Source: Candidatus Latescibacterota bacterium | Lineage (GTDB): Bacteria; Latescibacterota; UBA2968; GCA-2709665 | Length of the DNA: 64,000 nt | NCBI GenBank assembly: GCA_963662665.2 | Contig: CAXXJS010000061.1 | Coordinates: 32,001-96,000, forward strand | Reading direction: 5' to 3' | Shown here: one piece after another, positions 344 to 63,476 of the stretch | Numbering within the stretch: position 1 is the first letter of the stretch | Layout of the letters: every line of letters starts with the position of its first letter | Position numbers and translations under genes: made by a program | The notes under the pieces: model-generated | Databases searched by the model: none | The model's input: only the letters and a program-made list of their open reading frames with translations | What the model was told of the DNA's origin: nothing

Positions 344-426
344 ATATGACACGCTCGTGCCCGGCTTCGGACATCCGCCCTTCGCGCAACCGCATTCGCG
401 GTTCGTGCACCGCGGGAACGTTAACG
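344..426 (+). other. attC-like recombination site (family A)
   Basis: ATATGAC...GTTAACG; interior GTGCCCGGCTTCGG...CGCGCAACCGC..TTCGCGGTTC nearly identical to the attC at 63395-63476. Confidence 0.8.
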
Positions 427-459
427 GAAATCGCCGCTCCCATCCCAAAGGAGGGAAAA

Positions 460-1773
460 ATGAAACTCTGGGTATTCACCTGCAGCGACAGCCCGTTCGA
501 ACACTGGCTCGACGGGTTCGAGGAGCGGTTCGACGCATGGGAGGATGGCGGCGTGAGGGGCTTGGCCGTCGGCCGCATGTCATTCCTCCAGGAGGATGGC
601 ACCACCATTCCGGCGTGGGCTCCCGACCCGAAGGTGTACGAGGCTCTCGGGGCGGAAGTCCCGGAGCAGCGTCCGCGCGACCTCTCGAAAGAGAAGAAGC
701 TGCACGCAATGCTGGACAATGCCGCGGAGCGGGGCTGGCGACTGCTGATTTTCGCCGGAGGCGGCCCGACCGCCCACGTGCAGGACCAGATGAACGCCTT
801 TCCACAGGTGCACGGCGTCGTTGTCGACGGTCCGGGCGAAAACCACTACGAGCTGGCCTTCCACCACGGGGGCGAACTCCTGGAGATCCGTCCGGGTGAG
901 GAGGCCCGGTTCGCCCAGGTCGGCGCCGAGATGGATCGAATACAACGCGGCATCACCCACTTTCGGGAGCGTCTGCACAATCTGACACCGGAAATGGTGC
1001 GGTACCACGCCGACGGGGGGATGCTGGGGGCAATGCTCCTGTTCGACGTCAACGAGGACGTACTCTACTGGCTGCGCAAGCGGCAGGAGCGCTCTCGCTT
1101 CGACTGGCAGTACATGCGGCAACAGGTCGACGCCGTCGACCGCAAGGTGGAGCTGGGCGGTATCCCGCGGGCCGTGTCGTGGTCATCGCTCACCGGACAG
1201 AATTACTGTCAGATGGCGGAGTATTTCGACTATATTTTTCCGAAACACTATTTTTGGCACCGCGGCATGGACGGGATGTACGGAACCATATCCCGCTGGG
1301 TAAGACGGTTGCGAAAGTGGAATCCGTCCTTGAGCGAGGCGGAGTGTTTCGCCGTCGTGAAGGCGCTGTTGGGCATCGAGCTGCCTGGTGTCAACTCGCT
1401 GATGGATATGGAGATGGGTTTCCCGGACGAATTCTTCTCCAGGGTGGTCTACAACGAGACTCGGCGGGCCCTGGCGGCCATAGGTGATCCCGACAAGGTG
1501 ATCGCCTGGGTGTCCACGGGTCGGCGCCCCCACGGCGGCGACCCGATGCAGGCGCGCGATCTCTACGGCATCCTGACTGCTTCGCAGGAGGCGGGGTTGA
1601 AGCGCTTTCTGTACCATCCCGAGCCGGATTTCGGGGCGGCGGAATGGACCATCATCTCGTCGATGTGCGGAAACCAATGGGATGAAGACGCCGGCGGGTA
1701 CTGGCCGACGGGGACCGACAAGCCAGGGTTCTGGGACGGCGGGCGCGAGGTACCCGAAGAGGGCCGAATATGA
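460..1773 (+). CDS. conserved hypothetical protein (possible TIM-barrel/glycoside-hydrolase-like)
   Basis: Long ORF, GGAGG RBS before ATG 460 (MKLWVF); no diagnostic motif recognised. Confidence 0.7.
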   Translation: MKLWVFTCSDSPFEHWLDGFEERFDAWEDGGVRGLAVGRMSFLQEDGTTIPAWAPDPKVYEALGAEVPEQRPRDLSKEKKLHAMLDNAAERGWRLLIFAGGGPTAHVQDQMNAFPQVHGVVVDGPGENHYELAFHHGGELLEIRPGEEARFAQVGAEMDRIQRGITHFRERLHNLTPEMVRYHADGGMLGAMLLFDVNEDVLYWLRKRQERSRFDWQYMRQQVDAVDRKVELGGIPRAVSWSSLTGQNYCQMAEYFDYIFPKHYFWHRGMDGMYGTISRWVRRLRKWNPSLSEAECFAVVKALLGIELPGVNSLMDMEMGFPDEFFSRVVYNETRRALAAIGDPDKVIAWVSTGRRPHGGDPMQARDLYGILTASQEAGLKRFLYHPEPDFGAAEWTIISSMCGNQWDEDAGGYWPTGTDKPGFWDGGREVPEEGRI

Positions 1774-1863
1774 GCAGGATCCTTGACTCGTTGCGGGAGC
1801 GTTTCCCGCGGGCGCGGACGATGGCCTGGTTCGACAACGCTCGTCCCATCCCGGAGATGTGAA

Positions 1864-2625
1864 ATGAAAGATTCCCTGTCATATTCCGTTGGGATAATTG
1901 CAGATATTCACGGCAACGTGGCTGCACTCAACGCTGTTATTGAGGATCTGCAAAGCCAACCCTACAATTGTCTGGTGGTCGCCGGCGACCTGGTGCTGAA
2001 CGGACCCCGCCCGGTCGAGAGCCTTGACGCGGTACGAAATCTGGGCGCTCCCACGATTTACGGGAACGCAGACCTGTTGGTCTTTGATGAACAGTATTCC
2101 GGGGAGAGACTGGACTGGGTGAGGGAGAAGCTGGGAACAGATGGCTTGAGCTATCTAAGGAATCTGCCCTTTGAGCACCGGATAACCCCACCCGGAGGGC
2201 AGTCTCCGGAGGATGATCTTCTCATTGTCCATGCAACGCCGACTGATGTGGCCGGTTTCTTGGTTCTTCAACCTGATCAGGATCCGTTCAGGCCTCTGAC
2301 CGTTACGCCAGACGAGGAGGCCGGGACACTGCTCGGGGATGCGATGGCCAATCTGATTGTGGCGGGTCACCTGCACTATGCGGCCAATGGCGTTCCGTGC
2401 GGTCAGCGGTATAGCATCATTGATTCAGTTGGGTTTCCGTTTGACGGGGATCATCGAGTCGGATATGCCAGCGTGTGGTGGGATGGGCAGGAATGGCATG
2501 TGGAGAATCACAGATTGAGTTACGATTACCACAGGGTTGTGGAGGATGTCAGGGGTTGTGGTGCGCCTTTTGGTGAGTTGTCGGCCCAAAGGATTCTTCA
2601 AACCAGATTCAGGCCGGTCATGTAG
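1864..2625 (+). CDS. metallophosphoesterase family protein
   Basis: IADIHGN, GDLV, GNAD, VHATP and GHLH motifs. Confidence 0.9.
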   Translation: MKDSLSYSVGIIADIHGNVAALNAVIEDLQSQPYNCLVVAGDLVLNGPRPVESLDAVRNLGAPTIYGNADLLVFDEQYSGERLDWVREKLGTDGLSYLRNLPFEHRITPPGGQSPEDDLLIVHATPTDVAGFLVLQPDQDPFRPLTVTPDEEAGTLLGDAMANLIVAGHLHYAANGVPCGQRYSIIDSVGFPFDGDHRVGYASVWWDGQEWHVENHRLSYDYHRVVEDVRGCGAPFGELSAQRILQTRFRPVM

Positions 2626-2633
2626 AATCAGAA

Positions 2634-2713
2634 GCCTGATGTTGCGCGCTGTGTGTCTGCCCGTGACAGGCTTCGCCGCGATGGGGCTGCCGGCGGTTAA
2701 CAGGCCGTTATGC
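2634..2713 (+). other. degenerate attC-like site
   Basis: GCCTGAT...GTTATGC between the stop at 2625 and the RBS of the next gene. Confidence 0.45.
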
Positions 2714-2740
2714 GAAGCAGCGGAAAGGAAATGAAGCGCC

Positions 2741-3397
2741 ATGCTGAAAGCCATTCTTTGGGACAACGACGGCGTCCTGGTCGACACCGAAGGCCTGTAT
2801 TTCCAGGCCTGCCGCGAAACCCTTGAACCCCTCGGCGTCCGCCTGAGCGAAGCCCGTTTTATCGAGTCCTTCCTCAAGGCCAGCGATGGTCTTACCAGGA
2901 TCGCCGCCGAACACGGCATTGACGAACAGGCGCTGGAGTCCGCCCGCATCTGGCGCAACGCCCGCTATACCGAACGCTTGCGCGCCGGCGTACCCGTCAT
3001 CGACGGCGCTCGCCAGGTGCTGCGCCAACTTCACGGCACCGTGCGCATGGGCATCGTCACCAGTTCGCGGCGGGAGCACTTTGAGATCATCCACGCCGCC
3101 ACCGGCCTGCTGGACTGCATCGATTTCACGCTTGTGCGCGAAGACTACCGGCATTCCAAGCCGGACCCCGAGCCCTACCTCACGGCCATGCGGCAAAACG
3201 GCCTTAGCGCCGCCGAATGCGTCGTTATTGAAGACTCGGACCGGGGGCTGCGCGCCGCACTGGCGGCCGGGCTGCGCTGCATCGTCATACCGCAGGGCCT
3301 GACGCGCGGCCTGGACTTCACCGGCGCCACGCGGCAACTGACCGATATCCGTCAGGTCCCACCGCTGATCCATGAACTGATGCAAACTCAACCCTGA
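2741..3397 (+). CDS. HAD family phosphatase (HAD-IA)
   Basis: WDNDGVLVDTE motif I, SKPDPEPY, VIEDS motif. Confidence 0.92.
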   Translation: MLKAILWDNDGVLVDTEGLYFQACRETLEPLGVRLSEARFIESFLKASDGLTRIAAEHGIDEQALESARIWRNARYTERLRAGVPVIDGARQVLRQLHGTVRMGIVTSSRREHFEIIHAATGLLDCIDFTLVREDYRHSKPDPEPYLTAMRQNGLSAAECVVIEDSDRGLRAALAAGLRCIVIPQGLTRGLDFTGATRQLTDIRQVPPLIHELMQTQP

Positions 3398-3582
3398 TTT
3401 ATCATTTTTCGGGGACGTTAATTCGCATATACGCAAGTGTATAAGGGCGATTTGAAGTCGGATTTCTAGGAACCTTCAGGTCGCTGGACGTGAACGGAAA
3501 AAATGTCCATTTCAATGACCGACTCGACCCAATTTGGAAAGACTTTTCGCGGCACCGCGTTGTTGCTTTTGTGTAATTAAGC
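3392..3582 (+). mobile_element. MITE copy 1 (191 bp, diverged)
   Basis: Homologous to five other copies; flanked by a perfect TCAA duplication (3388-3391/3583-3586); supplies the TGA stop of the HAD gene. Confidence 0.8.
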
Positions 3583-3601
3583 TCAATGCCGGGAGAAACC
3601 A

Positions 3602-5059: not shown

Positions 5060-5180
5060 AGCCATTTAGGGATTCAACAACCATCCACGGCGAATAAACT
5101 GTATCTGGCTTTTCAGCAACGAGTGGAACTTGCCGAACTTTCTCCCCAGAATCGCAAGTCAGGCCGTTCGGAGGTCCGCT

Positions 5181-6308: not shown

Positions 6309-6324
6309 CAGGTTCATATAATTG

Positions 6325-6762: not shown

Positions 6763-6852
6763 TCTAACCCCTCCTCTTCAACAGACGGTGCTTTGCTTAT
6801 TTGGTTCCCAAGGGCTTACCAAGAGTGCCGTGAGCGAAGCGTTGGCTGACTG

Positions 6853-6909: not shown

Positions 6910-6924
6910 GAAAGTGAGTTCGGC

Positions 6925-7968
6925 GTGTTTAGAGCGGATCTCTTCCAGGCGCACCTGGAAAACTGGGAACTCATTCTGCAGGAGCGAACCGTTGAAGCCA
7001 TCGAACGGATCGCGTCTGTTCCTGGCGTTGGGGGTGTGATTCTTGGGGGTAGCATTGGGCGAGGAATGGCGTGGCCCATATCAGATATAGACCTCATCTA
7101 CATTACTACCAGGGCGGCGGACAACAGTCTTCCAAAGGCAGTGGACGAACTTGCGTTGTCCATCACAAGGGAGTGGGCTCGGGACACGTGGCCGACGTCT
7201 GTTGACGCAGGCCGACTCCATTTTACAGCCGATGAGGCGGACGACTTGATCAATGGCAAGCGTCACTTGGACAAGCTGATGGCCAATGAGAGGATTTTCC
7301 ATGCGACCGACAAAAGCCACCTCGGTCAATCAGTTCACGCGTCTGAGGATTGCGATACTCCTGCATTTGTTGCGCTACTTTCCGATGGTCGATTTGACCC
7401 ATCGGTTGTCCGGGCACGCCAAATCGAGCGAGTCAGACGTGTAACAAGGCTCGCCCATCGAGTGAAGTCACATCTGCAGGCAGGTCGTCTGAATGCAGCA
7501 GGGATCTCTATACAGGAACTCGCGCGTGTTATAATCCCATATCTGAAGGAAAGTTGGGGGCATGGAGATCGGTCCTTTGGGAGGGTTTTCACTCGCTTTT
7601 GCGTTCTGGCTCAGGAGCACCTGGAAGAAGGAATTGCGAATCGTCTCATTCGTCTGTTCTCTCTTACGGCGGATGAGGTAGAAGCACGGTACGCGAAGGC
7701 TCCAGCTAATGTTGTGGAGCGGCACATCACATCGTATCCATCCCGCCTGGCCGCGGGCGAGGAGGTCACGGAGCTCGATGACAAACGCGATGTCCTGTAT
7801 GCCTATACGTGGTATGCAGTTCGTTCTGGTGAAACTGGTTCGTGGCTCCTCAATGAGGACCTGCACAAGTCTCAACTCAAGTTGTCATTGGATCAAACAG
7901 CATCCATATGGGCCGAGGTGGTCTCGAAGGAGCCGGATTGCGTATCCAGCGAACTCACCTTCGCATAA
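6925..7968 (+). CDS. nucleotidyltransferase (Pol-beta/KNTase-like) domain protein, gene cassette
   Basis: ILGGSIGRG...SDIDL motif; stop codon lies inside the R'' box GCATAAC. Confidence 0.8.
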   Translation: MFRADLFQAHLENWELILQERTVEAIERIASVPGVGGVILGGSIGRGMAWPISDIDLIYITTRAADNSLPKAVDELALSITREWARDTWPTSVDAGRLHFTADEADDLINGKRHLDKLMANERIFHATDKSHLGQSVHASEDCDTPAFVALLSDGRFDPSVVRARQIERVRRVTRLAHRVKSHLQAGRLNAAGISIQELARVIIPYLKESWGHGDRSFGRVFTRFCVLAQEHLEEGIANRLIRLFSLTADEVEARYAKAPANVVERHITSYPSRLAAGEEVTELDDKRDVLYAYTWYAVRSGETGSWLLNEDLHKSQLKLSLDQTASIWAEVVSKEPDCVSSELTFA

Positions 7969-8099
7969 CACGAGCACCCACGGCTCCAGCCATCCGACCT
8001 CCGCCCAACCTGGCTTCGCCGCCCTTCTGGCGCCCCGGCCCCTGGCAACCGGCTTCGCAGGTTCGCAAATCGTGAGACCTTGGCGGACGTCGTTTAGGC
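7963..8099 (+). other. attC-like site (long)
   Basis: GCATAAC...TTTAGGC; contains GCAACCGGCTTCGCAGGTTCGCAAATCGTGA, shared with the attC at 61209. Confidence 0.7.
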
Positions 8100-8115
8100 G
8101 CAGAATGCGAACTGT

Positions 8116-9753: not shown

Positions 9754-9841
9754 ACGAAATACGACGGTCTGCGGCTCCGGTACGATTGCGCCTCCAATCC
9801 AACTCGCCTACGTCAAGCTCCAGCCCGATCGTACATTATCG
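9754..9841 (+). other. degenerate attC-like site
   Basis: Both ends defined by long complementarity to neighbouring cassette ends (9738-9760 vs 8838-8860; 9836-9853 vs 10837-10854). Confidence 0.65.
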
Positions 9842-9872
9842 GAAATAGACTCATTCGAGGGAGTCTCCAACG

Positions 9873-10640: not shown

Positions 10641-10831
10641 CCTTGATTGGTTGTTTTTCCGGGACGTAAAATCGAATTTAGGCAAGTGGATAAAGGCGAT
10701 TTGACTTCTGGTTACCGGGATACACCAGGTTACTGGACGTGAACTGAAAACACGTCCTTTTTGACGACCGTTACGCCGCGTTTCATGGGTTTTCGTCGCG
10801 TCGCCGCGTTGCTGTTTTTTTCGGACTGGGG
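10641..10831 (+). mobile_element. MITE copy 2 (191 bp)
   Basis: CCTTGATT...GACTGGGG, flanks TTAA/TTTA; sits between a stop codon and an attC. Confidence 0.88.
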
Positions 10832-10848
10832 TTTATTGAGTCTGCTTC

Positions 10849-10939
10849 CGATAACAGCACGTTTTGCGCTGCGGCGCTGATCGCGCCCTGGCCTACGGCA
10901 ACCGCTTCGCAGTTCGCGCACGGCGGCAAGACGTTAGAT
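10849..10939 (+). other. attC site (family B)
   Basis: CGATAAC...GTTAGAT, TTTTGCGCTGCGGCG...GCAACCGCTTCGCAGTTCGCGCA. Confidence 0.85.
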
Positions 10940-11043
10940 GAAATGGGAAACGTAAAATCAGACTATTGCAGAATAACTCCAGATAGCGGGAGATGTTCTG
11001 CATATTTATCGCTCAGTCACTGGTTGGCCGCAGAGAATACCGG

Positions 11044-14955: not shown

Positions 14956-15044
14956 CGGCAACTCCAGCTTTCACGACGGACTGTGGCGCGAGGATTTCGC
15001 CACTTCGCCATGTCTGCTGACGCAGGTTCGGGAGGACGTTACAT
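14956..15044 (+). other. attC-like site
   Basis: CGGCAAC...GCAGGTTCGGGAGGAC-GTTACAT just upstream of the next gene. Confidence 0.55.
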
Positions 15045-15085
15045 AAGATAGGAAGAGAGAATCAACATAACGTGAGGAAGTAACG

Positions 15086-16853: not shown

Positions 16854-16882
16854 TTGCAAATGATATCAAAATTTGATATCAT
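16854..16882 (+). promoter_or_regulatory. sigma70 promoter with palindromic operator of hicAB
   Basis: TTGCAA-17bp-TATCAT; ATGATATCAAA-A-TTTGATATCAT inverted repeat (16860-16882) covers the spacer and -10. Confidence 0.8.
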
Positions 16883-16888
16883 TTACTC

Positions 16889-17143
16889 GTAAACAAACGG
16901 CACCGGGATACTCTGGCTGATACTTTCAGGACGCCCGTTTCTACCGGACTGGAATGGAGGCGTATAGAAGCTCTTTTCAAGGCAATTGGAGCTGAATCGA
17001 TTGAAGGCAGAGGTTCACGGGTGCGGTTTGCGCTTAATGGTGTCGTCGCCACCTTTCACCGTCCTCACCCTCACAAAGAGGCAAGAGTCTATCAAGTGCG
17101 TGATGCGAGACATTTCCTACAACGGGCAGGAGTTACCCCATGA
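16889..17143 (+). CDS. hicA: HicA toxin with a non-canonical GTA first codon (possibly inactivated)
   Basis: Manual translation VNKRHRDTL...EWRRIEALFKAIGA...EGRGSRVRF.LNG....FHRPHP.KEA..YQVRDAR.FL; ATGA overlap with hicB; absent from the ORF track. Confidence 0.85.
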   Translation, partial: VNKRHRDTLADTFRTPVSTGLEWRRIEALFKAIGAESIEGRGSRVRFALNGVVATFHRPHPHKEARVYQVRDARHFLQRAGVTP

Positions 17144-17484
17144 ACACAATGACCCATAAAGGATATGCGGCTCGGATTGACTATAGTGATGAAGATGGCT
17201 GCTTCATTGGTCATATTGCAGGGATCAATGATGTGGTAGGCTTTCACGGCGAATCGGTTGAAGAACTGCGTTACGCCTTTGAAGAATCTGTTGACGACTA
17301 TCTTGAAACCTGTGAAAAGCTCAACAGATCCCCTCAAAAGCCGTATTCCGGCAGACTGATGTTGCGCATTCCTCCAGAGGTTCACGCAGCGATCGCGACG
17401 GCGGCTGAAGTAAGTGGAAAGAGTATCAATCAGTGGGCGACAGAAACGCTCGCCGGTGTTTTGGCGCCGGATGCACGACGATGA
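17140..17484 (+). CDS. hicB: HicB antitoxin
   Basis: MNTMTHKGYAARIDYS.ED..F.G...GI.DVV.FHG.SV.EL; KPYSGRLMLRIPPEVH RHH. Confidence 0.93.
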   Translation: MNTMTHKGYAARIDYSDEDGCFIGHIAGINDVVGFHGESVEELRYAFEESVDDYLETCEKLNRSPQKPYSGRLMLRIPPEVHAAIATAAEVSGKSINQWATETLAGVLAPDARR

Positions 17485-19459: not shown

Positions 19460-19541
19460 CTATAATACCGTGCCCCTGGCTCCGGGCCATACGGCCCTTC
19501 GCCCAACCGCTTTGCGGTTCAGGGGCACGAAGACGTTACAC
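19460..19541 (+). other. attC site (family A-like)
   Basis: CTATAAT-ACCGTGCCCCTG...CAGGGGCACG-AAGAC-GTTACAC with clearly paired L arms. Confidence 0.8.
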
Positions 19542-19615
19542 GACATGGGAAGATTGCGGGCAGAAAGCGCTTGCCGCCATCCACAACATTTGACAATATC
19601 TCGTTCGGGGGCACA

Positions 19616-27310: not shown

Positions 27311-27964
27311 ATGACAGATCGAATCACCGATGATGACTTCGCCGAACAGCGTTCTGCGATCGATTCAGATATGGATGCTGGCGGAGATCGTGACCAGCTC
27401 GATCAGGCAATTCGTACGGAAGCCGATGGACTGCTTAGGACAAAAGGCTTGAGAGGTCTACTCGAAGACTACGGTACTCCCCATGTCACGGGTAGTTACG
27501 CGTTGCACCTGATGACCTGGAGGGATCTCGATATCTGTCTGGAAGCGCCGAATTTATCTGAGGGATCGTTCTTTCGTCTGGGAGGCAGGATCGCATCCTG
27601 CCTTGCGCCGGTAAGAATGAGTTTTCGCAATGAACGCATAAACCGGACTCCAAACCTACCGTTGGGTCTCTATTGGGGTGTCTATCTCGGGGATGAGAGA
27701 AAAGGCGCATGGAAGATTGATATCTGGGCCGTTGATTCTGAAGAATGCGAGCGCCAGCTTCAGTTTAATCGACGGCTTGCAGCGGCCCTGACACCTTCAT
27801 TTCGCAGTAAGATTCTCAGCATCAAACAGGCCTGTTGGAAGGATCCTGGATATCGGAAGACGTATACGAGTCAAGACATATACCGTGCGGTGATCGAACA
27901 AGGCATAGAGGACGTTGATGGCTTCAAAGACCACATGAAGGGCAGGGGCGTGAGCGTCTGTTAA
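27311..27964 (+). CDS. nucleotidyltransferase-like protein
   Basis: TGSYAL.LM.WRDLDI; WKIDIW. Confidence 0.75.
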   Translation: MTDRITDDDFAEQRSAIDSDMDAGGDRDQLDQAIRTEADGLLRTKGLRGLLEDYGTPHVTGSYALHLMTWRDLDICLEAPNLSEGSFFRLGGRIASCLAPVRMSFRNERINRTPNLPLGLYWGVYLGDERKGAWKIDIWAVDSEECERQLQFNRRLAAALTPSFRSKILSIKQACWKDPGYRKTYTSQDIYRAVIEQGIEDVDGFKDHMKGRGVSVC

Positions 27965-28125
27965 CACCATGGCGGCTGCGGGCTTTTCGGTTCTTCGCAC
28001 AACCGATACGGCGGCATATACTCATAGGTTCCGAGAAAGTCACGCTTCACTTTCATTCCGACAATTCATCACCTCAGGTTTTGAATGACTGCTCCAAAAC
28101 CTCACTTTCGGTCTTCAGGCATTGA

Positions 28126-28355: not shown

Positions 28356-28468
28356 ATTTAACTGCAGGGTCTGTGCCGCGGCGCGGAGCCTGTCCTGAGT
28401 TCACCGAACGGGCGCCCTGGCCTCCTGCAAATCGCTTTGCGAGTCCAGAAACCGGAATAACTTTAGAC
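28356..28468 (+). other. attC-like site (family B) with a REP-like insert
   Basis: ATTTAAC...TTTAGAC aligns with 10849-10939 except for extra CCTGTCCTGAGTTCACCGAACGG. Confidence 0.6.
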
Positions 28469-28471
28469 GAT

Positions 28472-37933: not shown

Positions 37934-38155
37934 ATGAGCAATATCAAATTCAGGGTACTCATCGAACAGGATGAAGACGGCATCTTTGTGGCCGAGGTTC
38001 CCGCTCTGCCGGGTTGCATTTCGCAGGGGTCTACTCGAAAGGAAGCCCTGGTAAATGCCCAGGAAGCGATGGAGCTCTATATTGAGAGCCTGGAAGCCCA
38101 CGGGGACCCTATTCCTCCCGCGATTACGGAAGAAATCATCGAGATTGAAATTTGA
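37934..38155 (+). CDS. hicB: short HicB-family antitoxin
   Basis: IEQDEDG.FVAEVPALPGCISQG.T..EA..N..EA..LY. Confidence 0.92.
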   Translation: MSNIKFRVLIEQDEDGIFVAEVPALPGCISQGSTRKEALVNAQEAMELYIESLEAHGDPIPPAITEEIIEIEI

Positions 38156-38376
38156 GCCCGCTTCCGGTTGTCTCCGGTCGCGATGTTGTCAGTGCATTGG
38201 GAAAGATCGGCTACGAGGCCGATCGTCAACGTGGAAGCCACATCGTATTGCGACTGAATCGAAAACCGTTTCGCCGAATCGTAGTCCCCAACCACAGGCA
38301 GGTAGCCAAAGGAACTCTGCGAGCGATCATCCGTGAGTCAGGATTGACCGTGGAAGAATTTCGAGCCCTGACGTGA
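38152..38376 (+). CDS. hicA: HicA-family toxin
   Basis: LPVVSG..V..AL.K.GY...RQRGSH; VP.H....GTL..I. Confidence 0.92.
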   Translation: MSPLPVVSGRDVVSALGKIGYEADRQRGSHIVLRLNRKPFRRIVVPNHRQVAKGTLRAIIRESGLTVEEFRALT

Positions 38377-45426: not shown

Positions 45427-45621
45427 ATGAAGCTTTTCCTGGATCTCACGGATTCGCAAAACGAAAAGTTGGATTTAACCGCCAAACGACTTGGAATACG
45501 TCCTGAGGAGCTTGCAAAAGCGGCGTTGGATGATTTGCTTGATAAGCTTCAGGAAGATTTCGAAGCCGCAGCGCAGCGTGTTTTGAGCAAGAATGAGGAA
45601 CTCTATAGAAGGCTGAGTTAA
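45427..45621 (+). CDS. antitoxin partner of Doc (small DNA-binding protein)
   Basis: DFEAAAQRVLSKNEELYRRLS C-terminus typical of Doc-adjacent antitoxins; TAATG coupling. Confidence 0.8.
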   Translation: MKLFLDLTDSQNEKLDLTAKRLGIRPEELAKAALDDLLDKLQEDFEAAAQRVLSKNEELYRRLS

Positions 45622-46006
45622 TGAGGTATCTTTCTCTGGCAGAGGTGATCGAACTTCACAGACGCGTTGTTGATCAAAGTGGCGGAGCATCGGGGTTGCG
45701 CTATACAGGCAGATTAGAGTCGGCCGTTGCGCAACCCCGTATTTCTTTTGGGGGGCGGGATCTATATCCTTCGCTGATAGAGAAGCCGGCGCGTTATCCT
45801 TTACCCTGGTGCAAAACCATCCGTTTGTCGATGGGAATAAGCGATTGGGCCATGCAGCGATGGAAGTATTCCTGATTCTGAATGGGCATGCGATCTGGGC
45901 CGGTGTGGATGAACAGGAGTCTCTCATTATAGGCGTTGCTTCCGGCCAGGTTTGAAGAGAGAGTCTGATCAAATGGTTGACCGAGCATGTATTCGAAACG
46001 GTGTGA
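45621..46006 (+). pseudogene. Doc/Fic toxin, frameshifted and with a premature TGA
   Basis: MRYLSLAEVIELH...G.LESA..P...F...LYP..EK, then shifted frame [10 protein letters not shown]; TGA at 45953. Confidence 0.85.
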
Positions 46007-48848: not shown

Positions 48849-50823
48849 GTGCGCCGTGAAAAGGCGCGGAACTTCAGTGGGTGAGAGTCCCACCCGACAG
48901 ATGTTGCCACAGTCGGAAGCAATCGGAGCGGAGACGCAGGTAACGACATCTCCGAAGCCTCCGGTGTAGAGGGTCGCCAGGCGACCCGGCGAGTATGTGG
49001 GCTGAAACGTGAGTAAACGCTGCGCAGGCCTCGAAAAAGGTAATGCGGGAGCCGACCCGGCTTTTGGACGGGGAAGGCCGCCGTCGTTGGGGAAGCAGGC
49101 AACGAGCGCACCCAACGGTCCCGCCGGGGTAATGGCGGAGGCACGCATACAAGGAGTTCCGACGCAACACGGGAAGCCCCAGCGGTGGGGGTGACACCAA
49201 CCGGCAGCCCGCGAGGGCCAGGCCGGGCCGCATGGGGTGGCGGAGAGGCCCGTAGTACCTGAGAAGCCGGGTAATGCCGGTGGAGGAAAGGGGCCTTGGT
49301 TCAAGGGCAACGTCAAAGGAGCGAGAGCCGGGAGATTGGTATGAGCCTAAGACCTCCGGACAAGGTTCGGAAGCTGCGGATGACGTTGCATGCCAAAGCG
49401 AAGGAATCGCCCGATTACCGATTCTACGCGCTATATGACAAAGTGTATCGCGAGGACATCCTGAACTATGCTTACCGCTGCTGCAAGGCCAACGGCGGCG
49501 CGGCGGGCGTGGACGGGGAGACTTTCGAGGACATCGAGACATATGGACGAGACCGGTGGTTAGGCGAACTGTCGGAAGCCGTAAGAAGCAAATCGTATCG
49601 GACCTCTCCGATTCGTCGGGTATATATCCCGAAGCCGAACGGGAAGCAACGGCCGCTGGGTATCCCGACGATCAGGGACCGTGCGGTGCAAACGGCGGCG
49701 GTGCTGGTCCTGGAGCCGATCATTGAAGCGGACCTGCCAGCAGGGCAGTATGCGTACCGTCCGAAGCGGAGCGCGCACGACGCCGTCAAGGCGGTTCACA
49801 GTCTGGTGAACCGAGGCCACACACAGGTGATCGACGCCGACTTGAGCGGCTACTTCGACACGATCCCGCACGCCGAGTTGATGAAATCGGTGGCGCGCCG
49901 CATCTCGGACGGGCGGATACTGCGTCTGATCAAGATGTGGCTGACCGCGCCGGTGGAAGAAACCGACAAGCGGGGCCGGAAACGTCGGACGACGCCGAAC
50001 AAGGACCAGGGAAGAGGGGTGCCGCAAGGCGCGCCCATCTCCCCGTTGCTGGCGAACCTGTATATGCGTCGGTTCATCCTGGGCTGGCGACTTCTGGGAC
50101 ATCAGCAACGTCTGAAGGCTCATATTGTCAACTACGCTGACGATTTTGTGATCTGCTGTCGCGGGTCTGCAAAAGAAGCGATGCGCGTGATGCGATGCAT
50201 GATGAAAGCGCTCAAGTTGACGGTCAACGAGCAGAAGACGAGCGTATGCACGCTTCCGGAAGGACGATTTGACTTCCTGGGTTACACCATCGGACGCTGT
50301 TACTCGCCAAAGACGGGCAAGGCCTACATCGGCACGCGTCCGTCAAAGAAGGCGATCCGGCACATCTGCCGGGCCATCAGCGAGGCCACGGCGCGACGGT
50401 GGTTGCTGAAAGACCATCAAGAACGGATTGCCCACCTGAACCGAAAACTGGCAGGCTGGGGCAACTACTTCCGTCTTGGACCGGTCAGCAAAGCCTACCG
50501 GAGTGTGGACAGCCACACCCGGCAACGGCTCCGATGGTGGTTGTGCAACAAGCACCGGATACCGGGAAAGGGAACGTCACGGTTCCCTGACGAGGTCCTC
50601 TACGATACGTTGGGCCTGACCCGGCTGGAAGCGCAGACGCGCAACTTTCCGTGGGCGAACGCATGACGCCTTGTCCGAGAGCCGGATGCGGTAACTCCGC
50701 ACGTCCGGTTCGACGAGCGGGACGTGGAAACGGGGCACGGAGGGGCTATTGAGGCACCGCCAGACGAAAGGGGCGGAAACAGATAGGCCACTCCTAAACC
50801 ACCGCGCCACATCTCGACTCTAC
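48849..50823 (+). mobile_element. group II intron (complete, not class IIC)
   Basis: 5' GTGCG; domain V GAGCCGGATGCGGTAACTCCGCACGTCCGGTTC (AGC triad); 3' ...CGACTCTAC; RT ORF inside. Confidence 0.95.
49341..50666 (+). CDS. ltrA: group II intron reverse transcriptase/maturase, no endonuclease domain
   Basis: GAAGVDG, RPLGIPT..DR, GVPQGAPISPLLAN, YADD, FDFLG, GWGNYF. Confidence 0.96.
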   Translation: MSLRPPDKVRKLRMTLHAKAKESPDYRFYALYDKVYREDILNYAYRCCKANGGAAGVDGETFEDIETYGRDRWLGELSEAVRSKSYRTSPIRRVYIPKPNGKQRPLGIPTIRDRAVQTAAVLVLEPIIEADLPAGQYAYRPKRSAHDAVKAVHSLVNRGHTQVIDADLSGYFDTIPHAELMKSVARRISDGRILRLIKMWLTAPVEETDKRGRKRRTTPNKDQGRGVPQGAPISPLLANLYMRRFILGWRLLGHQQRLKAHIVNYADDFVICCRGSAKEAMRVMRCMMKALKLTVNEQKTSVCTLPEGRFDFLGYTIGRCYSPKTGKAYIGTRPSKKAIRHICRAISEATARRWLLKDHQERIAHLNRKLAGWGNYFRLGPVSKAYRSVDSHTRQRLRWWLCNKHRIPGKGTSRFPDEVLYDTLGLTRLEAQTRNFPWANA

Positions 50824-58291: not shown

Positions 58292-58299
58292 CGAAGATC

Positions 58300-58342
58300 T
58301 GATTCGTATTGCCGTATCTGTTCGCAAATGCCGTAGTTAGAT
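58300..58342 (+). other. right arm of an attC (R' GTTAGAT at 58336)
   Basis: GTTCGCAAATGCCGTA-GTTAGATGAAATGAA; 14/15 complementary to 61201-61215. Confidence 0.7.
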
Positions 58343-58419
58343 GAAATGAAAAAAATAAAGATCTACACAGATAAATTGCCAGAAGAACACCATTCTATGA
58401 ACGAACAGGTTTATGGGTT

Positions 58420-59082
58420 ATGTATGAACTTCTAGCGAAGAATATAACCGCCGTATTCGCCCTTGGAGGAGTTTTGTTGGGCTCAATGTTCACCTTCTTT
58501 GCAAATTCAAGATTAAAAGAGAAGGAGTTGCAACTTCGGCTACGGGAAAAGGTGCTGGATCGGCGAATCGAAGCCCATGAGGCAATTTTTAAGCTGGTTG
58601 CTCCAATGAGACATATGAGGTCGTTGGAGTATCAGGAGTCTGAATCAGAACTTGCCCGAACGCCACAGTTCTTCATGAGTCCTGAGGAATTTTACTCTTG
58701 GCATATTCAGCATTTAGAAGTGGCTGCGACCTATTCTGCGTGGCTAACAAAGCCTGTAAGCCGTGAACTCAATTTTATACAAGACTATACGCTAAACCTA
58801 TCTATGCTTATCGGGCCAGCCCCTGCCAATCTATTTCCTGAGATTGGTCGTATCATTCGGTCAGACTTTATCGATATGGCGCACCAACTAGAGAAAATTG
58901 CATTCGATTTTTTTGAGAAGGACCTAAGTAAGATGACATTTGGTGATCCTGACGAGCATCATAAATATAAAAAAGATGAAACGTTAGAAAGGTTAAACTT
59001 AACCAAACTATATCAAGAATGGGCTACAATAGCCGAAATGATCCAGTCGAATACAGAGTCTTCTATCCTGACCTATTCATGA
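58420..59082 (+). CDS. AT-rich hypothetical protein with an N-terminal TM helix (cassette ORF 1)
   Basis: ORF; last codons replaced by IS1380 (pre-insertion end ...ESSITK*). Confidence 0.75.
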   Translation: MYELLAKNITAVFALGGVLLGSMFTFFANSRLKEKELQLRLREKVLDRRIEAHEAIFKLVAPMRHMRSLEYQESESELARTPQFFMSPEEFYSWHIQHLEVAATYSAWLTKPVSRELNFIQDYTLNLSMLIGPAPANLFPEIGRIIRSDFIDMAHQLEKIAFDFFEKDLSKMTFGDPDEHHKYKKDETLERLNLTKLYQEWATIAEMIQSNTESSILTYS

Positions 59083-60764
59083 ATCGTCAGGGATTGCAGA
59101 TTCGTGCAGCAGAAGCAGCTTTCGAGTGAGTCTAAGAACGCAGGAGAAAGCTGGCTGTGCGGAACTGGCGTTTTCAAGCGATTTCAGGGTGTATTTTTGT
59201 AGCAGGGTTGCGTGGAGGCGTCAGGATGACCTTGTTGTGACTGCCAAGAGCACAGACTTCTCCATGGCTTTTGGTGGTAGCAATCAAGACGTGAAGGCGG
59301 CCTGTTCCAGATGGAAACGTTATGGCATGGCGGTTCCCAGATTGTAGAGCATGGTTCGATAGAGGTGTTTGAGTGGAAACGCCGTTGGCAGATGGAACGT
59401 GATTTTGGTTTTCAGTTCACAAACGCGCCCGGCGACTTTCAAGATGCGGTTTTGCAGCGTATTAAACTGGGCGTTCGTCCACGTGGTGCCGCGCAACCCG
59501 ATATGGGCCAGGGCGTGCACCAACACATAGGCGGCGCTGTGGAGAAAGAGCCGGAAGTGATTGGCGTGGAAGGTGTGGCAAGAGGTGCGATCGGAATGCA
59601 GAAAGGTCTTGTGATTCTTGATGAAGTTTTCCATCCTGCCGCGTGAGCAATAAGCGGTTTTGTAGATGAATGACGGTTGTGCGCCGTTCAGGTTGGTGAC
59701 CACGAATCGGATATTGTGACCTTGCGGGGTGACTTCTGCCTTGCAGATGATGCGGCGTGGGGAAGACCAGCTGCCGGCCTGATAGTCCCAACAGCGATAC
59801 AGGCGCACAGGTTTTCCCCCATCGGCATACAGCGCTTTGGCCTGGTCCATCAAGGGCTGTGCCAACCGCAGCAGCACCGCGTTTCCGCCTTGTCCGAGGA
59901 TAAAAAACACATCGTTTTCGTCACACATCGTGTGCACTTCCGGACACGAAAAGTGTGAATCGCCACGCAACAGGATCTTGACATCGGGCCATGCTTTACG
60001 CAGGTAGGCGATCACCCGTTTGAGAATCGACACGATCTCTTTGCCCGTGGGTCGGCGGCCCGGACGCAAGACCGTCGTGATCAACTTGCCGGTTTGCCCT
60101 TCATAGATATGCAGGGGTTGGTAGCAATAGCCCTTGAAATACGCATTGAATAACGACAACTGCTGGGATCCATACACCTTGTCTTCCGTGTCATCGATAT
60201 CCAACAGAATGGCTTCAGGGGGGTGCTTATACGAGGCGATAAACGCATCGGCAAAGGCCTTCGCGATACGATATAAGTCACCTCTGGTGATCCGGTTCTC
60301 GAACCGACTCATCGTGGGTTGACTGGCCAGGTTGGCACCGGTGACCGGCAACCGATCGCAGGCCGCCTTGAAGCCGGGGTCACTACGCAACGCATTGCAG
60401 TCGTTCGCATCCTCATACCCACACGCCATCTGAAAGACACGCTGAGTCAGCAGGTCCACCGACGGGTGATCCACGTAACTTGGATGCCGACGATCTGTTA
60501 TCGCCTCGACGATCCGACACAAAATGCCGATTCTGGATTCCACCTCGCGAAGCAGCATCGCCCCGGTGTCGCTGGTCAGCATGCCCCCGTCGAAGGTGGC
60601 TTCTACCCGTTTGCCAGAAACACTTGCGAAAGACATCCTTTGTTGTTTATCTTGACCTGCCACGGTAGTTTCCTCCCGGTTCATTGTTATCAGGTTATTC
60701 TCGTAACCATAATATAATACAATGACTTGGGTAAGGAAACTACCTTTTTTGTGAATTATTCAGA
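59067..60764 (-). mobile_element. IS1380-family insertion sequence
   Basis: Imperfect IRs CCTGACCTATTCA / TCTGAATAATTCA; CTAT duplication (59063-59066, 60765-60768). Confidence 0.9.
59320..60684 (-). CDS. IS1380-family DDE transposase
   Basis: FDGG.LTSD.G; GYED.ND...LR.DP; ASQPT.SRFEN; LDID; LRGDS.F; Y..RG.MEN.IK. Confidence 0.95.
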   Translation of the reverse strand: MNREETTVAGQDKQQRMSFASVSGKRVEATFDGGMLTSDTGAMLLREVESRIGILCRIVEAITDRRHPSYVDHPSVDLLTQRVFQMACGYEDANDCNALRSDPGFKAACDRLPVTGANLASQPTMSRFENRITRGDLYRIAKAFADAFIASYKHPPEAILLDIDDTEDKVYGSQQLSLFNAYFKGYCYQPLHIYEGQTGKLITTVLRPGRRPTGKEIVSILKRVIAYLRKAWPDVKILLRGDSHFSCPEVHTMCDENDVFFILGQGGNAVLLRLAQPLMDQAKALYADGGKPVRLYRCWDYQAGSWSSPRRIICKAEVTPQGHNIRFVVTNLNGAQPSFIYKTAYCSRGRMENFIKNHKTFLHSDRTSCHTFHANHFRLFLHSAAYVLVHALAHIGLRGTTWTNAQFNTLQNRILKVAGRVCELKTKITFHLPTAFPLKHLYRTMLYNLGTAMP

Positions 60765-60808
60765 CTATAACCAAATAATGGCAATTCCGTAAATATGGAG
60801 AAAATACA

Positions 60809-61174
60809 ATGAATTATGAATGGGAACGAGCATCAGAAAGAGGCCAAAAAGGAGTCGGATATGTGGAGGTATACAACACCACTGCTAAAGGCCATCGCAT
60901 TAGTGCTGTAATCAGCTTTCTCCCTCAAATAACAGGCCGTTCCAATCAGAGGCAAGTTAATGTATGTCTGTTTTTTGAAGGTAAAAAAGTGGAATTAACC
61001 GATGGCTTTTTTCACTGGATATATGACGATATTGGAGATATCGTTCAGGAGCAAGAAAGTGAATATTTCAATAGTGACTCTGAAGCGTTGGAGTATATGG
61101 TAACTCAAACTCTGATAGTAGACAGAATGCCTCAACTTGATTTGGTATCAAATGGTGATTACGCAATAGGCTAA
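60809..61174 (+). CDS. AT-rich hypothetical protein (cassette ORF 2)
   Basis: GGAG RBS, 121 aa, same cassette as 58420. Confidence 0.65.
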   Translation: MNYEWERASERGQKGVGYVEVYNTTAKGHRISAVISFLPQITGRSNQRQVNVCLFFEGKKVELTDGFFHWIYDDIGDIVQEQESEYFNSDSEALEYMVTQTLIVDRMPQLDLVSNGDYAIG

Positions 61175-61208
61175 TAATTTTGTGATATAAGGATGAAGAC
61201 TTCACTTC

Positions 61209-61298
61209 ATCTAACACAGCATTTTGCGCTGCGGCGTATACGCGCCTTGGGCTACGCCAACCCGCTGCGCGGGTTCGCAAATCGTGAAACCGTTATAT
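61209..61298 (+). other. attC site (family B, intact)
   Basis: ATCTAAC...ATTTTGCG...TTCGCAAAT...GTTATAT. Confidence 0.9.
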
Positions 61299-61820
61299 GT
61301 CATGCCAGAATCTTCTTGAGTCTAGAATTCAATGCGACTAGTACTCGTCCGCCACGGACAAGGCAAAGACCAGCTGACCGAGACGAACTCCGGTGAGCGC
61401 ACTTGCTCAGGTCTCACGGACTTGGGCAGGGAGCAAGTTTACGCGCTCGCGACACATCTTCGAGAGTCAGGTGAATTCTCCGATTGTCAGACGTTACTCA
61501 GCAGCACTATTGCGCGAGCGCGGCAGACCGCCAAGGTATTGTTGGATGTCTTGCCGGCACAATGCGTAACCGAGGATCCAGATCTATGTGAGCTGCGAAT
61601 GGGCCAAGCCGAGGGTCTCACCACCTCCGAGATCCAGACAAAGTATGGCGACGCAACGCCTCCGGGCGCGGAAACTTTCCAAGAATTGTTTGACAGAGCA
61701 CATTCAACGTTGTTGTCCTACTCGCGGCGATTCAACGGGCAGACAGTAATGGCAGTGACACATGGCGGATTCATCGTCGGGTCAACGATTAGGCTTCTTT
61801 CAGGCCCCGAGACCAAAGTC

Positions 61821-63246
61821 GGGCAAGTACTATTTTCAGTTGAAAAAGGAGAGGCGTTTAGTCAGCGGCGTAGGCCTCTTGAGAGTCATGATCAAGGTTG
61901 AGATGTTTGCGTAGGGCAAGTCTGAGTGTGGGAAGGAATCGGTATCCTTTGATTCTCCGCAAACGGGGCTGTATATCCAACAGCGCGGCTGCCAACCACC
62001 GATATCGCTGATCGGAGTTGTTCCATCGCTTTACGTTCCGTGTGCGCTGTGCGACCATGGCGTTGAGTGATTCGATACAGTTGGTGGTGCGGAACGACTG
62101 TTTGAGGTGCGGCATGAGTCCAAGGCGATGCAGGGTGAGGGTTTCTTCGAGCCCTTCCTCAAGGCTGTTCAGTGCCGATGCATTCATCAGCGCCAGGGAG
62201 GGCTTGAGGGTCTTCAGCGCGGCTTTGGCGTCTGTGTAGGTCTCCTTGTCGTAAGCATCGTGGAGGGCCTTTCTGACCTCGTCCTGCTGTGATTTGGGCA
62301 GATAGGCGATCACATTCTCCCGTTTGTGCCACTGACAGCGTTGGATTGCCACATATCCGGAGAGGGCCTTGGTGAGGGCGGCCCGCAATCCCCTGGAGCC
62401 GTCGATGAGGCACAGCAGCCCCTGTTGATACTGCAATCCGCGATCGATGAGGGCATCCACGAACTGGCGGCACACGCGCTCGTTTTCACTGGCGGCCTGC
62501 ACGAACCCCAGCGGGATCTTGTGCCCGTCGATGGTCACGCCAAGGGCGATGATCATTTCCTGATCGGCAAAGGTCTTGCCATCCATAAACAGACCCACCA
62601 GGTCATCGCCCGCAAGCGACCGTTCTTGAAACTGTCTCAGCTTGGCCGCCGATGCCTTAATGAACCGCCTGGAGACACTCGAAGAAGACAAACCAAACGC
62701 CTCGGGTACCGCTTCTGCGCAACCTTCATACGAACGCGTGGCAATGCCGCTGACGACGCGCAGCAGCAACCCTTCGTCCATGTGTCTGGGGCGCTGCAAG
62801 CGATGATACACCTCGAGAGGAACTTCCTCATTGGCTTCCACGTCGCGAACCCTGGGCACCGCAACAGGCACCTTTTGGTCCGACAGATACACCGATCCCG
62901 ATTGCGCGCCCCACCGGCGATTCGGAGTCTTGCCCGCTTTGCGAGTGTATCTCTGGCCCGTCAACGCGGCGACCTCATTCTGCAGGATTTCTTCCACGGC
63001 GTCCAAGCCCAGCGGGATCAGCGACTGGATCAATGCGACCCGGACGTCAACATCCTCCAGCGCACCTGCGGGGACCGCCCCGGACCTCACACCACCATCT
63101 GTGCTCAACTTGACTTCACGGGACTTCGATGTTACCTTGCGCATCACAGGCTCCTTTCGTATGAGGATACAGTCTTCTTCCACGAGATTACCGTATCCAA
63201 TTTACATCGGAGCCTCTTCTATTTCAACTAAGGTAGGCACACTCCC
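61821..63246 (-). mobile_element. IS256-family insertion sequence
   Basis: ~35-bp imperfect IRs (GGG...AGTTGAAA.AG.AGAGGC); 8-bp duplication CCAAAGTC (61813-61820, 63247-63254). Confidence 0.93.
61858..63144 (-). CDS. IS256-family (Mutator) transposase
   Basis: FMDG; LIDGS.GL; QRCQWHK..N; RTTNCIES.N. Confidence 0.95.
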   Translation of the reverse strand: MRKVTSKSREVKLSTDGGVRSGAVPAGALEDVDVRVALIQSLIPLGLDAVEEILQNEVAALTGQRYTRKAGKTPNRRWGAQSGSVYLSDQKVPVAVPRVRDVEANEEVPLEVYHRLQRPRHMDEGLLLRVVSGIATRSYEGCAEAVPEAFGLSSSSVSRRFIKASAAKLRQFQERSLAGDDLVGLFMDGKTFADQEMIIALGVTIDGHKIPLGFVQAASENERVCRQFVDALIDRGLQYQQGLLCLIDGSRGLRAALTKALSGYVAIQRCQWHKRENVIAYLPKSQQDEVRKALHDAYDKETYTDAKAALKTLKPSLALMNASALNSLEEGLEETLTLHRLGLMPHLKQSFRTTNCIESLNAMVAQRTRNVKRWNNSDQRYRWLAAALLDIQPRLRRIKGYRFLPTLRLALRKHLNLDHDSQEAYAAD

Positions 63247-63394
63247 CCAAAGTCTGGCTACATCCTTTGAATACAGGCATTACTGAATGGTCTCTGTCTG
63301 ACGGGACCTGGACTCTTGTCCAATACAACAATGCTTACCATTTGCATCGACTGAACGAGAGCAGTTGATCCTCGGTGGGAGGGGAAGGCACGAC

Positions 63395-63476
63395 ATATAA
63401 CACGTCCGTGCCCGGCTTCGGGCATACGCCCGACGCGCAACCGCTTCGCGGTTCTGGCACGGCGAAAACGTTATGT
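63395..63476 (+). other. attC site (family A, intact)
   Basis: ATATAAC-ACGT-CCGTGCC...GGCACGG-CGAAAAC-GTTATGT. Confidence 0.92.

Follow-up and report, generated by a model that had tools for sequence, protein, structure and literature searches.

A largely fossil gene-cassette array of a probable integron variant in a Candidatus Latescibacterota bacterium

A 64,000-nucleotide stretch from a Candidatus Latescibacterota bacterium (assembly GCA_963662665.2, contig CAXXJS010000061.1, positions 32,001 to 96,000 of the forward strand; hereafter the window) very probably lies inside a chromosomal array of integron-type gene cassettes that is at least 64 kb long. The array is real, probably belongs to an integron variant and, because most of its sites are eroded, looks largely fossil rather than active. 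An initial annotation, made from the letters alone, had described the window as a very long integron-type array with no integrase. We uphold the integron-type reading on four grounds: covarying hairpin sites, homology to other genomes that is bounded by cassettes, toxin-antitoxin loci, and recombinase genes with attI-like junctions in relatives. The site family, its orientation, the toxin-antitoxin loci and the lack of an integrase were all described correctly, while the sites were over-counted and a proposed gradient in their preservation was not found. Integrons are a major route of accessory-gene acquisition, and their known range is set by what detection tools recognise. The present arrays place long cassette arrays in a candidate phylum that does not appear among the 14 phyla with integrons listed in the available text of a 2021 review (PMC8618304). 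The initial remark that this lineage is little studied for integrons holds. Among the papers listed by a literature search, none appeared to concern integrons or gene cassettes in Latescibacterota, and the supplements of three surveys (PMC9024848, PMC9668308, PMC4889954) may already list such elements.

The initial annotation named six hairpin sites, starting at 344, 10849, 16297, 19460, 61209 and 63395, from which we built a covariance model (R1). The six align as a single family, 83-93 nt long, in which the TAAC and GTTA ends are conserved and an inner stem-loop is common to all. They score 59-94 bits with R1, and the rest of the window stays below 20 bits. Relatives of the family were collected with a gapped pattern matching four of the six sites, which was run against one genome for each bacterial and archaeal species; 2 kb on either side of each pattern match was kept as a locus (300,827 bases in total; loci carry L numbers below). 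The scan revealed 75 loci, of which 59 are on Candidatus Latescibacterota records (mostly closed chromosomes), 6 carry the label Gemmatimonadota, 1 Poribacteria and 1 Terriglobia, and 8 are from unrelated taxa. These last eight gave no significant full-site match (one at E = 1) and are chance pattern matches. R1 found 156 matches at E <= 0.001 in the 75 loci, a figure that includes some double counting because loci overlap. Each related 4-kb locus holds 2-5 sites, always co-oriented within the locus. By this distribution, the site family belongs to Candidatus Latescibacterota.

A second covariance model (R2) was built from 150 R1 matches in other genomes, with no window sites, and the window was searched with it with filters off. 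This gave 17 matches at E <= 10. All six named sites are real by this measure (49-87 bits, E <= 1e-7, all on the + strand), and a seventh, starting at 21659, is also significant. The seven significant sites (E <= 0.003) all lie on the + strand, in keeping with the matching orientation given in the initial annotation, and all carry the TAAC and GTTA cores with single changes. They are listed here with the number of the 25 model pairs that each forms.

344..428, + strand: attC-type site at the left edge, after an open reading frame (ORF) open at its 5' end; R1 80.3 bits; R2 69.9 bits, E 4e-12; 21 of 25 pairs
10849..10941, + strand: attC-type site of a second sequence subclass; R2 48.9 bits, E 1e-7; 20 of 25 pairs; orthologous sites in L001 and L071
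16297..16379, + strand: attC-type site; R2 49.4 bits; 22 of 25 pairs; its TGAC box holds the stop of a truncated adenylyltransferase fragment
19460..19543, + strand: attC-type site, near-intact; R2 77.2 bits; 24 of 25 pairs; bottom-strand fold z -5.5; orthologous site in L037
21659..21751, + strand: attC-type site, weaker; R2 27.5 bits, E 0.003; 20 of 25 pairs
61209..61300, + strand: attC-type site of the second subclass; R2 54.4 bits; 18 of 25 pairs
63395..63478, + strand: attC-type site, intact; R2 86.8 bits; 25 of 25 pairs; bottom-strand fold z -4.0

The two best-preserved sites are thus those at 63395 and 19460, and the site at the left edge forms 21 pairs; the idea that the best sites lie at the right end had to be dropped, there being no gradient. 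It had been proposed that the array extends past both window edges, and cassettes do touch both: site 344 follows the 5'-open ORF, and the ORF after site 63395 is cut by the right edge.

The other ten R2 matches were marginal (E 0.085-6.4), eight on the + strand and two on the - strand, one of which coincides with the position of the 21659 site. Seven of the eight + matches are intergenic, starting at 8003, 28356, 27959, 14966, 27168, 9754 and 2695, and the eighth lies within an intron ORF. With an intergenic fraction of 0.197, the chance of such placement is P = 7.6e-5. The "about 20" sites first counted are too many: seven are firmly supported by R2, and roughly seven others, marginal, intergenic and on the + strand, are remnants. 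Six of these remnants can be described further.

7964..8103 (model match 8003-8087), + strand: eroded long attC-type site; R2 20.4 bits, E 0.085; its TAAC box holds the stop of gene 6889-7968
9754..9843, + strand: marginal attC-type remnant; R2 11.5 bits, E 6; blocks matched in L042, L019 and L001 end or start here
14966..15046, + strand: eroded attC-type site; R2 13.1 bits; part of a stretch collinear with L037, where the site at 169-256 reaches 47 bits
27168..27261, + strand: eroded attC-type site after a NUDIX cassette; R2 13.0 bits; the L016 homologue is flanked by sites at 2626-2710 and 3205-3295
27959..28047, + strand: eroded attC-type site after gene 27311-27964; R2 17.4 bits; the cassette in L062, L034, L009 and L043 ends in a scoring site
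28356..28470, + strand: eroded attC-type site, R' core changed from GTT to TTT on sequence inspection; R2 18.2 bits

Several marginal window sites are therefore true cassette ends whose counterparts elsewhere are better kept, as in the pair formed by 14966-15046 and L037 (13 vs 47 bits); the L073 cassette orthologous to the one closed by 7964..8103 likewise ends in a 48-bit site. Stop codons inside R'' boxes had been reported at four places. The overlap of the stop with TAAC or TGAC is present at 7968, 16302, 43633 and 54870, and the latter two have no model-supported site. At 54866-55079, alignment to orthologous L070 and L006 sites suggested a site with a mutated core; the alignment was poor, and this candidate was not counted. 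A second repeat family, made of CCTTCGAC-like sub-repeats and a GC-rich palindrome, occurs at 34786-34876 and 54930-55035 and, inverted, at ~26184-26260. Two of its copies lie directly 3' of genes with the stop in a TAAC box (34632 and 54870), where the model detects no attC. This family could represent either a long site of another type or one more small insert. A search of Rfam returned a family neither for the attC-type sites nor for a 195-nt repeat described below; its sole match was a group II intron.

We then consider whether the sites form hairpins. Compared with shuffled sequence, the bottom strands of two named sites fold markedly better (z-scores of -5.5 for 19460 and -4.0 for 63395) and those of the other four do not (61209, -1.2; 344, +0.3; 10849, +0.5; 16297, +1.2); the top strands behave alike. 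The 63395 bottom strand folds into stems for the R box and the L box, the latter with one bulged base, together with a three-way junction, and the fold of 19460 has no bulged base. Because single-site folding beat shuffles in only two of six cases, we relied on covariation across relatives instead. In an alignment of 132 distinct related sites, which was fitted to the model and so somewhat favours the structure, standard pairs fill 90.3% of cells. Shuffling the columns lowers this to 76.9% (none of 500 shuffles attained the real figure), and shifting the partners by 1-3 columns lowers it to 28-45%. Double changes were found in 21 of the 25 pairs, including all seven L-stem pairs. This clearly points to R and L helices that are kept by compensatory change, that is, to selection on an 85-nt branched hairpin. 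Watson-Crick pairs make up 2826 of 3217 cells (88%), and wobbles possible on one strand only are equally common for the top (78) and the bottom strand (72). Since wobbles are equal on both strands, a DNA hairpin fits rather than an RNA element, and the sites were rejected as RNA terminators on this symmetry. The TAAC and GTTA cores are retained in 124-131 of the 132 sites. In the consensus, the R box is followed by a 5-nt loop on one side (the R' arm), then by a single pair, 1-2 unpaired bases, the 7-bp L stem and finally a three-way junction; the internal loop is asymmetric (5 nt, AAAAC, on the R' arm vs 1 nt on the R'' arm). This geometry appears to differ from that of attC(aadA7) and VCR sites.

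The sites also behave as cassette boundaries. Blastn of the window against the related loci revealed blocks the size of cassettes, 79-94% identical, in many different genomes. The GTTA core that terminates the block in common with L001 (9766-10936) is also where the block in common with L057 begins, at 10931. Counted manually, leaving out ends cut by a locus edge and bridging a 195-nt repeat insertion, long shared blocks have 18 right ends, of which 12 lie within a strong or marginal site. Four other genomes (L062, L034, L009 and L043) also carry the cassette at 27385-27967, followed by a scoring site each time, and the NUDIX cassette at 26717-27174 sits between two sites in L016. At the larger scale, the window is collinear with the Latescibacterota chromosome OZ244744.1 (L015, L001, L037) over 16.5 kb (5084-21538) at 89-94% identity with kb-scale indels, and also matches OZ242180.1 at 444-791 and 4907-6308. 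This identity and collinearity with chromosomes labelled Latescibacterota would place the window in that phylum. The gene-order comparison proposed at the outset thus shows partial conservation with a close relative. Partial collinearity with this one genome suggests vertical inheritance and, given the matches to both chromosomes, the array appears to be vertically inherited and slow to change. Compared with L026 and L073, the cassette at 6903-7967 is 93.6% identical to a contig labelled Gemmatimonadetes and 92.7% identical to a Latescibacterota chromosome. Together with the six Gemmatimonadota-labelled loci, this similarity points either to inter-phylum cassette exchange or to mislabelled bins.

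As had been noted, nearly all genes are on the + strand (60 of 64 ORFs in a codon-model gene list). The - strand has four: one NUDIX gene, two transposases and an ORF within an ABC permease gene that is spurious. Over 1-64000 the cumulative GC skew climbs monotonically, so the + strand is probably the leading strand and the array co-oriented with replication. The cargo classes named by the initial annotation were recovered by Pfam: six methyltransferases, three NUDIX, three VOC, two GNAT and two nucleotidyltransferase-like proteins (one a fragment), to which four ankyrin proteins and one APH can be added. An ANT(2'')-like gene and a streptomycin-adenylyltransferase-like gene, the latter truncated, are among the cargo. 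Genes of aminoglycoside-modifying type are included in it, and nothing ties them to clinical resistance. Other cargo comprises HAD, Kelch, PD40 and PQQ-propeller proteins, a sulfotransferase, a three-gene ABC transporter and many ORFs without a Pfam family. Gene fragments at 16036-16302, 43319-43633 and 47195-48036 represent gene decay, the first of them (ORF 16036-16302) covering positions 206-278 of the 279 in the Pfam Adenyl_transf profile. All three toxin-antitoxin loci of the initial annotation were found again, and such loci and cargo are typical of cassette arrays as described in the available part of PMC8618304.

3..63998, + strand: co-oriented cassette cargo, including gene fragments (Pfam scans, gene list)
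16880..17484, + strand: HicA-HicB toxin-antitoxin pair (Pfam HicA_toxin 2.6e-10, HicB 4e-21)
37934..38376, + strand: HicB-HicA toxin-antitoxin pair (Pfam HicB_lk_antitox 3e-11, HicA_toxin 7e-16)
45427..45875, + strand: small ORF in the Phd position and Doc/Fic fragment, a degraded toxin-antitoxin locus (Pfam Fic 7e-4 on 45621-45875); from its position, the small ORF may have a Phd-like antitoxin role

What would have built such an array is indicated by its relatives. A tblastn search with five recombinase proteins located tyrosine recombinase genes in 5 of the 75 loci, from five genomes (L028, L049, L052, L053 and L054). The gene is always on the upstream side of the array (5/5 loci), divergent from it in two loci and co-oriented with the cassettes in three (L052, L053 and L054). 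In L028 and L049, the non-coding DNA adjoining the recombinase is conserved up to a GTTATG core and then diverges. L052 and L054 likewise have common non-coding DNA up to a GTTA core, and L053 is unalignable there. Four of the five recombinase loci therefore have attI-like junctions ending at GTTA, and in L028 the layout is recombinase, attI-like core, ORF and then a site in canonical orientation. The attI-like region (L028 3200-3470; L049 360-620) contains a perfect hairpin with 7-bp arms and a 3-nt loop, a few bases before the GTTATG core; this hairpin has a GGTTCG motif in common with the inner stem-loop of the attC family.

The L028 gene is a fragment whose best family is the integron integrase TIGR02249 (125 bits over the N-terminal half, vs ~70 for XerC/D). 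A search at similar length found full-length homologues of 292-314 aa in 12 clusters at 73-99% identity (individual proteins carry P numbers). A search for longer homologues gave only ~50% identical proteins with N-terminal extensions. The full-length homologues (P0121 group) stand for the divergent type of recombinase, since L049 is 89% identical to P0121 and L052-L054 only 50-64%. TIGR02249 is also their best family in four of five tested, matching in two stretches at 227-240 bits, below the 265-bit cut-off; the fifth, P0123, looks frameshifted and reaches 128 bits. The best PDB match of P0121 is VchIntIA (2a3v; 156 bits), with residues 24-187 aligned to 12-178 and 205-285 to 238-318. Residues 188-204 of P0121 (17 residues) stand opposite residues 179-237 of IntI4 (59 residues), so that ~42 residues spanning the IntI-specific domain are missing, and the structure of an archaeal XerC-like/XerA protein aligns to the homologue unbroken, end to end. 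The conserved catalytic-region motifs of P0121 line up with IntI4 and, on our own reading of the alignment, would be intact. This test for the IntI domain concerns full-length homologues of the relatives' recombinases, not the genome of the window. The co-oriented recombinases of L052, L053 and L054 are of a more distant type, whose nearest named homologues, P0051 and P0071, are 56-68% identical, have a ~100 aa N-terminal extension and pass the NCBIfam XerA-type cut-off. Collectively, these comparisons show that the relatives' arrays of the same site family begin beside an IntI-like recombinase without the IntI-specific domain.

Under the integron paradigm and with the relatives as guide, cassettes would mostly consist of one small accessory gene and, after it, the imperfect palindrome of 83-93 nt whose cores are TAAC and GTTA. 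Cassettes would be inserted one by one by a tyrosine recombinase at attI, expected upstream and thus to the left of the window, with recombination at the GTT of the folded single-stranded site. Sequential insertion would build a co-oriented array, in which toxin-antitoxin cassettes may help retention, and the window's part of the array would since have lost most of its functional sites. Two intact sites, five more that are recognisable, about seven remnants and several fragmentary genes make the array look old and mostly inactive.

How the array is classed depends on the definition. The window has the features of an integron cassette array, namely co-oriented sites, the same cassettes elsewhere and breakpoints (10931-10936) at a GTT core. 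The features of a complete integron, intI and attI beside the array, are absent from the window and present in form in the relatives (five recombinases, four attI-like junctions). As there is no integrase within it, the window taken alone is an element of the type called CALIN, in which attC sites cluster but have no integron integrase. A CALIN is defined by two or more attC sites spaced by less than 4 kb in the absence of a neighbouring integrase. Two groups of significant R2 sites, {16297, 19460, 21659} and {61209, 63395}, fit this definition, and the 4-kb clustering rule of PMC4889954 would split the window sites into four or five small clusters. That survey counts an integron as sedentary if its attC sites number more than 19 or if every genome of the species has it (PMC4889954). 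The initial suggestion of a superintegron-scale array accordingly stands for length (at least 64 kb) and fails for sites, with seven significant, or 14 with the marginal ones, falling below the >19 threshold. An IntI-specific additional domain around patch III is treated as defining for an integron integrase in the parts of PMC9668308 that deal with it, and the IntegronFinder integrase profile is described in PMC4889954, as far as its text goes, as built around this domain. The divergent-type homologues lack it. We file the array as a variant rather than a plain member because it has too few sites for a sedentary integron and because the relatives' recombinase lacks the IntI-specific domain.

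Several observations weigh against reading the window as an integron array. It contains neither integrase nor attI: no Phage_integrase match was found among 116 window ORFs scanned by Pfam and no tblastn match in the window for the five array-linked integrases, which agrees with the initial statement that there is no integrase in the 64 kb. Four of the six named sites fold no better than shuffled sequence. The RYYYAAC motif, on which the sites had first been recognised, is not enriched in the window (92 matches vs 97 expected in shuffled sequence) and fails as a site signal, and in a generic AAC...GTT scan by constrained DNA folding energy the known sites could not be separated from the GC-rich coding background. 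Site density is low, with seven significant sites in 64 kb and none between 21.8 and 61.2 kb. Many window genes have no site of their own, and many multi-gene stretches have no internal site, such as the three-gene ABC transporter at 22730-25344. Finally, a relative at about 90% identity has largely the same gene order, which argues against recent cassette shuffling here, and a 2.75-kb indel relative to OZ244744.1 (16004-18757) has no sites at its bounds.

Some of these points would be expected of an ordinary chromosomal region, in which the hairpins would be a lineage-specific intergenic repeat, either a terminator or similar to repetitive extragenic palindromes, with no role in recombination, and in which co-orientation would reflect leading-strand bias. 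GC skew is positive throughout, so that the + strand may be leading, the sites lie directly 3' of stop codons, where terminators usually are, the majority of window sites are weak, and order is largely conserved with the relative. We nevertheless consider this account extremely improbable. Unlike in an RNA terminator, wobbles are equal on both strands and 88% of pairs are Watson-Crick; there is no T-run, and TAAC and GTTA cores are conserved instead; at the GTTA core, blocks of homology to other genomes break off; the same cassettes occur in different arrays; and a recombinase is found at the upstream array end in five genomes, with attI-like junctions in four. A role for recombination is conceded by a second account, in which a Xer-like recombinase acts on short duplex cores and the hairpin is incidental, as in the pdif modules of Acinetobacter plasmids. 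Such modules are flanked by duplex sites of ~28 bp in alternating orientation. The array-linked recombinases are of Xer-like length, have no IntI insertion and align end to end with the archaeal XerC-like/XerA structure, and both the divergent-type homologue P0136 and the nearest homologues of the co-oriented type pass the NCBIfam XerA-type cut-off. The sites themselves argue otherwise, being covarying hairpins of 83-93 nt in a single, not an alternating, orientation, and selection clearly keeps the 85-nt branched form through compensatory changes. In addition, P0121-group homologues match integron integrase best in both NCBIfam and PDB, and the order of recombinase, attI-like core, ORF and site is integron architecture. 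A Xer/dif-type system is thus very improbable.

The integron reading could also hold in its canonical form. The arrays would then be served by a standard IntI that has the additional domain and whose gene lies at another place in these genomes, and the short recombinases would be degenerate copies or bystanders. The cores of the sites are canonical, our search covered 2 kb per side of each pattern match, with most of each genome lying outside it, and CALINs are common in genomes with an IntI elsewhere according to the available text of PMC4889954. We consider this unlikely, though more probable than either account above. All five array-adjacent recombinases lie upstream, four with attI-like junctions ending at GTTA. 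The conserved catalytic-region motifs of P0121 line up with those of IntI4, and full-length homologues of 292-314 aa exist in 12 clusters at 73-99% identity. No canonical IntI was found in 300 kb of flanks, as searched by Pfam on opposite-strand ORFs and by tblastn with the short type.

Taking the integron-variant reading further, we tentatively propose that Latescibacterota and some Gemmatimonadota- and Poribacteria-labelled genomes may carry a distinct integron branch, with an IntI-like recombinase without the additional domain and attC sites of a different asymmetry (a 5-nt one-sided loop by the R box and a branched tip). Tools that require the domain would label such platforms CALIN and so hide a class of complete integrons, and the window would be a 64+ kb fossil array of this branch, colonised by a new strand-specific inserting element of 195 nt that is itself a target of a group II intron. 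We regard this combined proposal as possible, somewhat short of probable. Arrays with a domain-less recombinase would, we infer, be called CALINs by IntegronFinder. If the domain-less array-linked recombinases are active enzymes, they would be an exception to the rule that the IntI-specific domain is needed for attC recombination, and many elements filed as CALINs might be complete integrons.

The window also offers a natural picture of array decay, in which site erosion and gene fragmentation are joined by insertion sequences, an intron and a small inserting repeat. The invaders are two insertion sequences, one group II intron and six copies of the 195-nt repeat.

10641..10834, + strand: 195-nt repeat 'D1', between a gene's stop codon and its attC (repeat-family search, nhmmer)
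~48849..50823, + strand: group II intron with reverse transcriptase/maturase ORF (Rfam RF02003, 90.4 bits; RVT_1 and GIIM on ORF 49296-50666)
59320..60684, - strand: insertion-sequence transposase (DDE_Tnp_1_4; Pfam 4.8e-156)
61858..63183, - strand: IS256-type transposase (Transposase_mut; Pfam 4.7e-39), inside the last full cassette

GC content is 0.48-0.50 at 58000-62000 and 0.51-0.63 elsewhere, the low values coinciding with low-scoring ORFs and the DDE and IS256-type transposases. This suggests that the right end (58000-62000) is more recently acquired DNA. The six repeat copies are all on the + strand, at 3387-3598, 10635-10844, 28122-28330, 29873-30084, 50807-51014 (plus 48836-48848) and 58097-58306. 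The D1 copy at 10641-10834 is a clean insertion, with the empty site present in L001 and L071, and a target duplication or terminal inverted repeat is not evident. Outside the window, one copy was found, at L002 851-1050 on a contig labelled Gemmatimonadota; no other related locus gave a match at E <= 1e-3. Consensus folding of both strands revealed few compensatory changes among the six copies only. The repeat looks like a small strand-specific mobile element, possibly (a guess) derived from a single-strand transposon, or like a mobile non-coding RNA gene. The window's group II intron is inserted ~13 nt into one copy of it. A 72% identical group II intron in L053 (~2478-4002) is inserted within an attC site, just after the R''/L'' arm, and both introns are co-oriented with the cassettes.

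The array can finally be set beside known systems. Sedentary chromosomal integrons, of which the Vibrio cholerae superintegron is an example, provide the closest likeness. As they are described in the available text of PMC8618304 and PMC4889954, the window shares with them a long co-oriented chromosomal array of small accessory genes, a lineage-specific attC family of similar sequence, interspersed toxin-antitoxin cassettes and a cargo mainly of acetyltransferases, methyltransferases and unknowns. It differs in having 7-14 recognisable sites in 64 kb, far fewer per kb and mostly eroded, in its multi-gene stretches without a site and the lack of an integrase in view, and in the missing IntI-specific domain of the relatives' linked recombinase. 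With CALINs, as set out in the available text of Cury et al. 2016 (PMC4889954), it has in common attC-type sites with no integrase nearby, the presence of insertion sequences and a site similarity below that of complete integrons. Unlike a CALIN, the window is one continuous array by gene orientation and homology, although the 4-kb rule divides it into small CALINs and singletons. Compared with IntI1 and VchIntIA (2a3v), the divergent recombinase type is similar in that VchIntIA is its best structural match (156 bits), integron integrase is the best NCBIfam family of the full-length homologue, and in two of five genomes the gene lies divergent to the array and beside an attI-like junction. It departs from them in the 17 residues opposite IntI4's 59, with the additional domain absent, and in scores of 227-240 bits against the 265-bit cut-off; in three genomes the recombinase is instead co-oriented with the cassettes, and its nearest named homologues are extended by ~100 aa N-terminally. 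Group IIC-attC introns are a known class that inserts at attC. The L053 intron, 72% identical to that of the window, resembles them in lying in an attC site, whereas the window intron lies in the 195-nt repeat rather than in an attC and is co-oriented with the cassettes.

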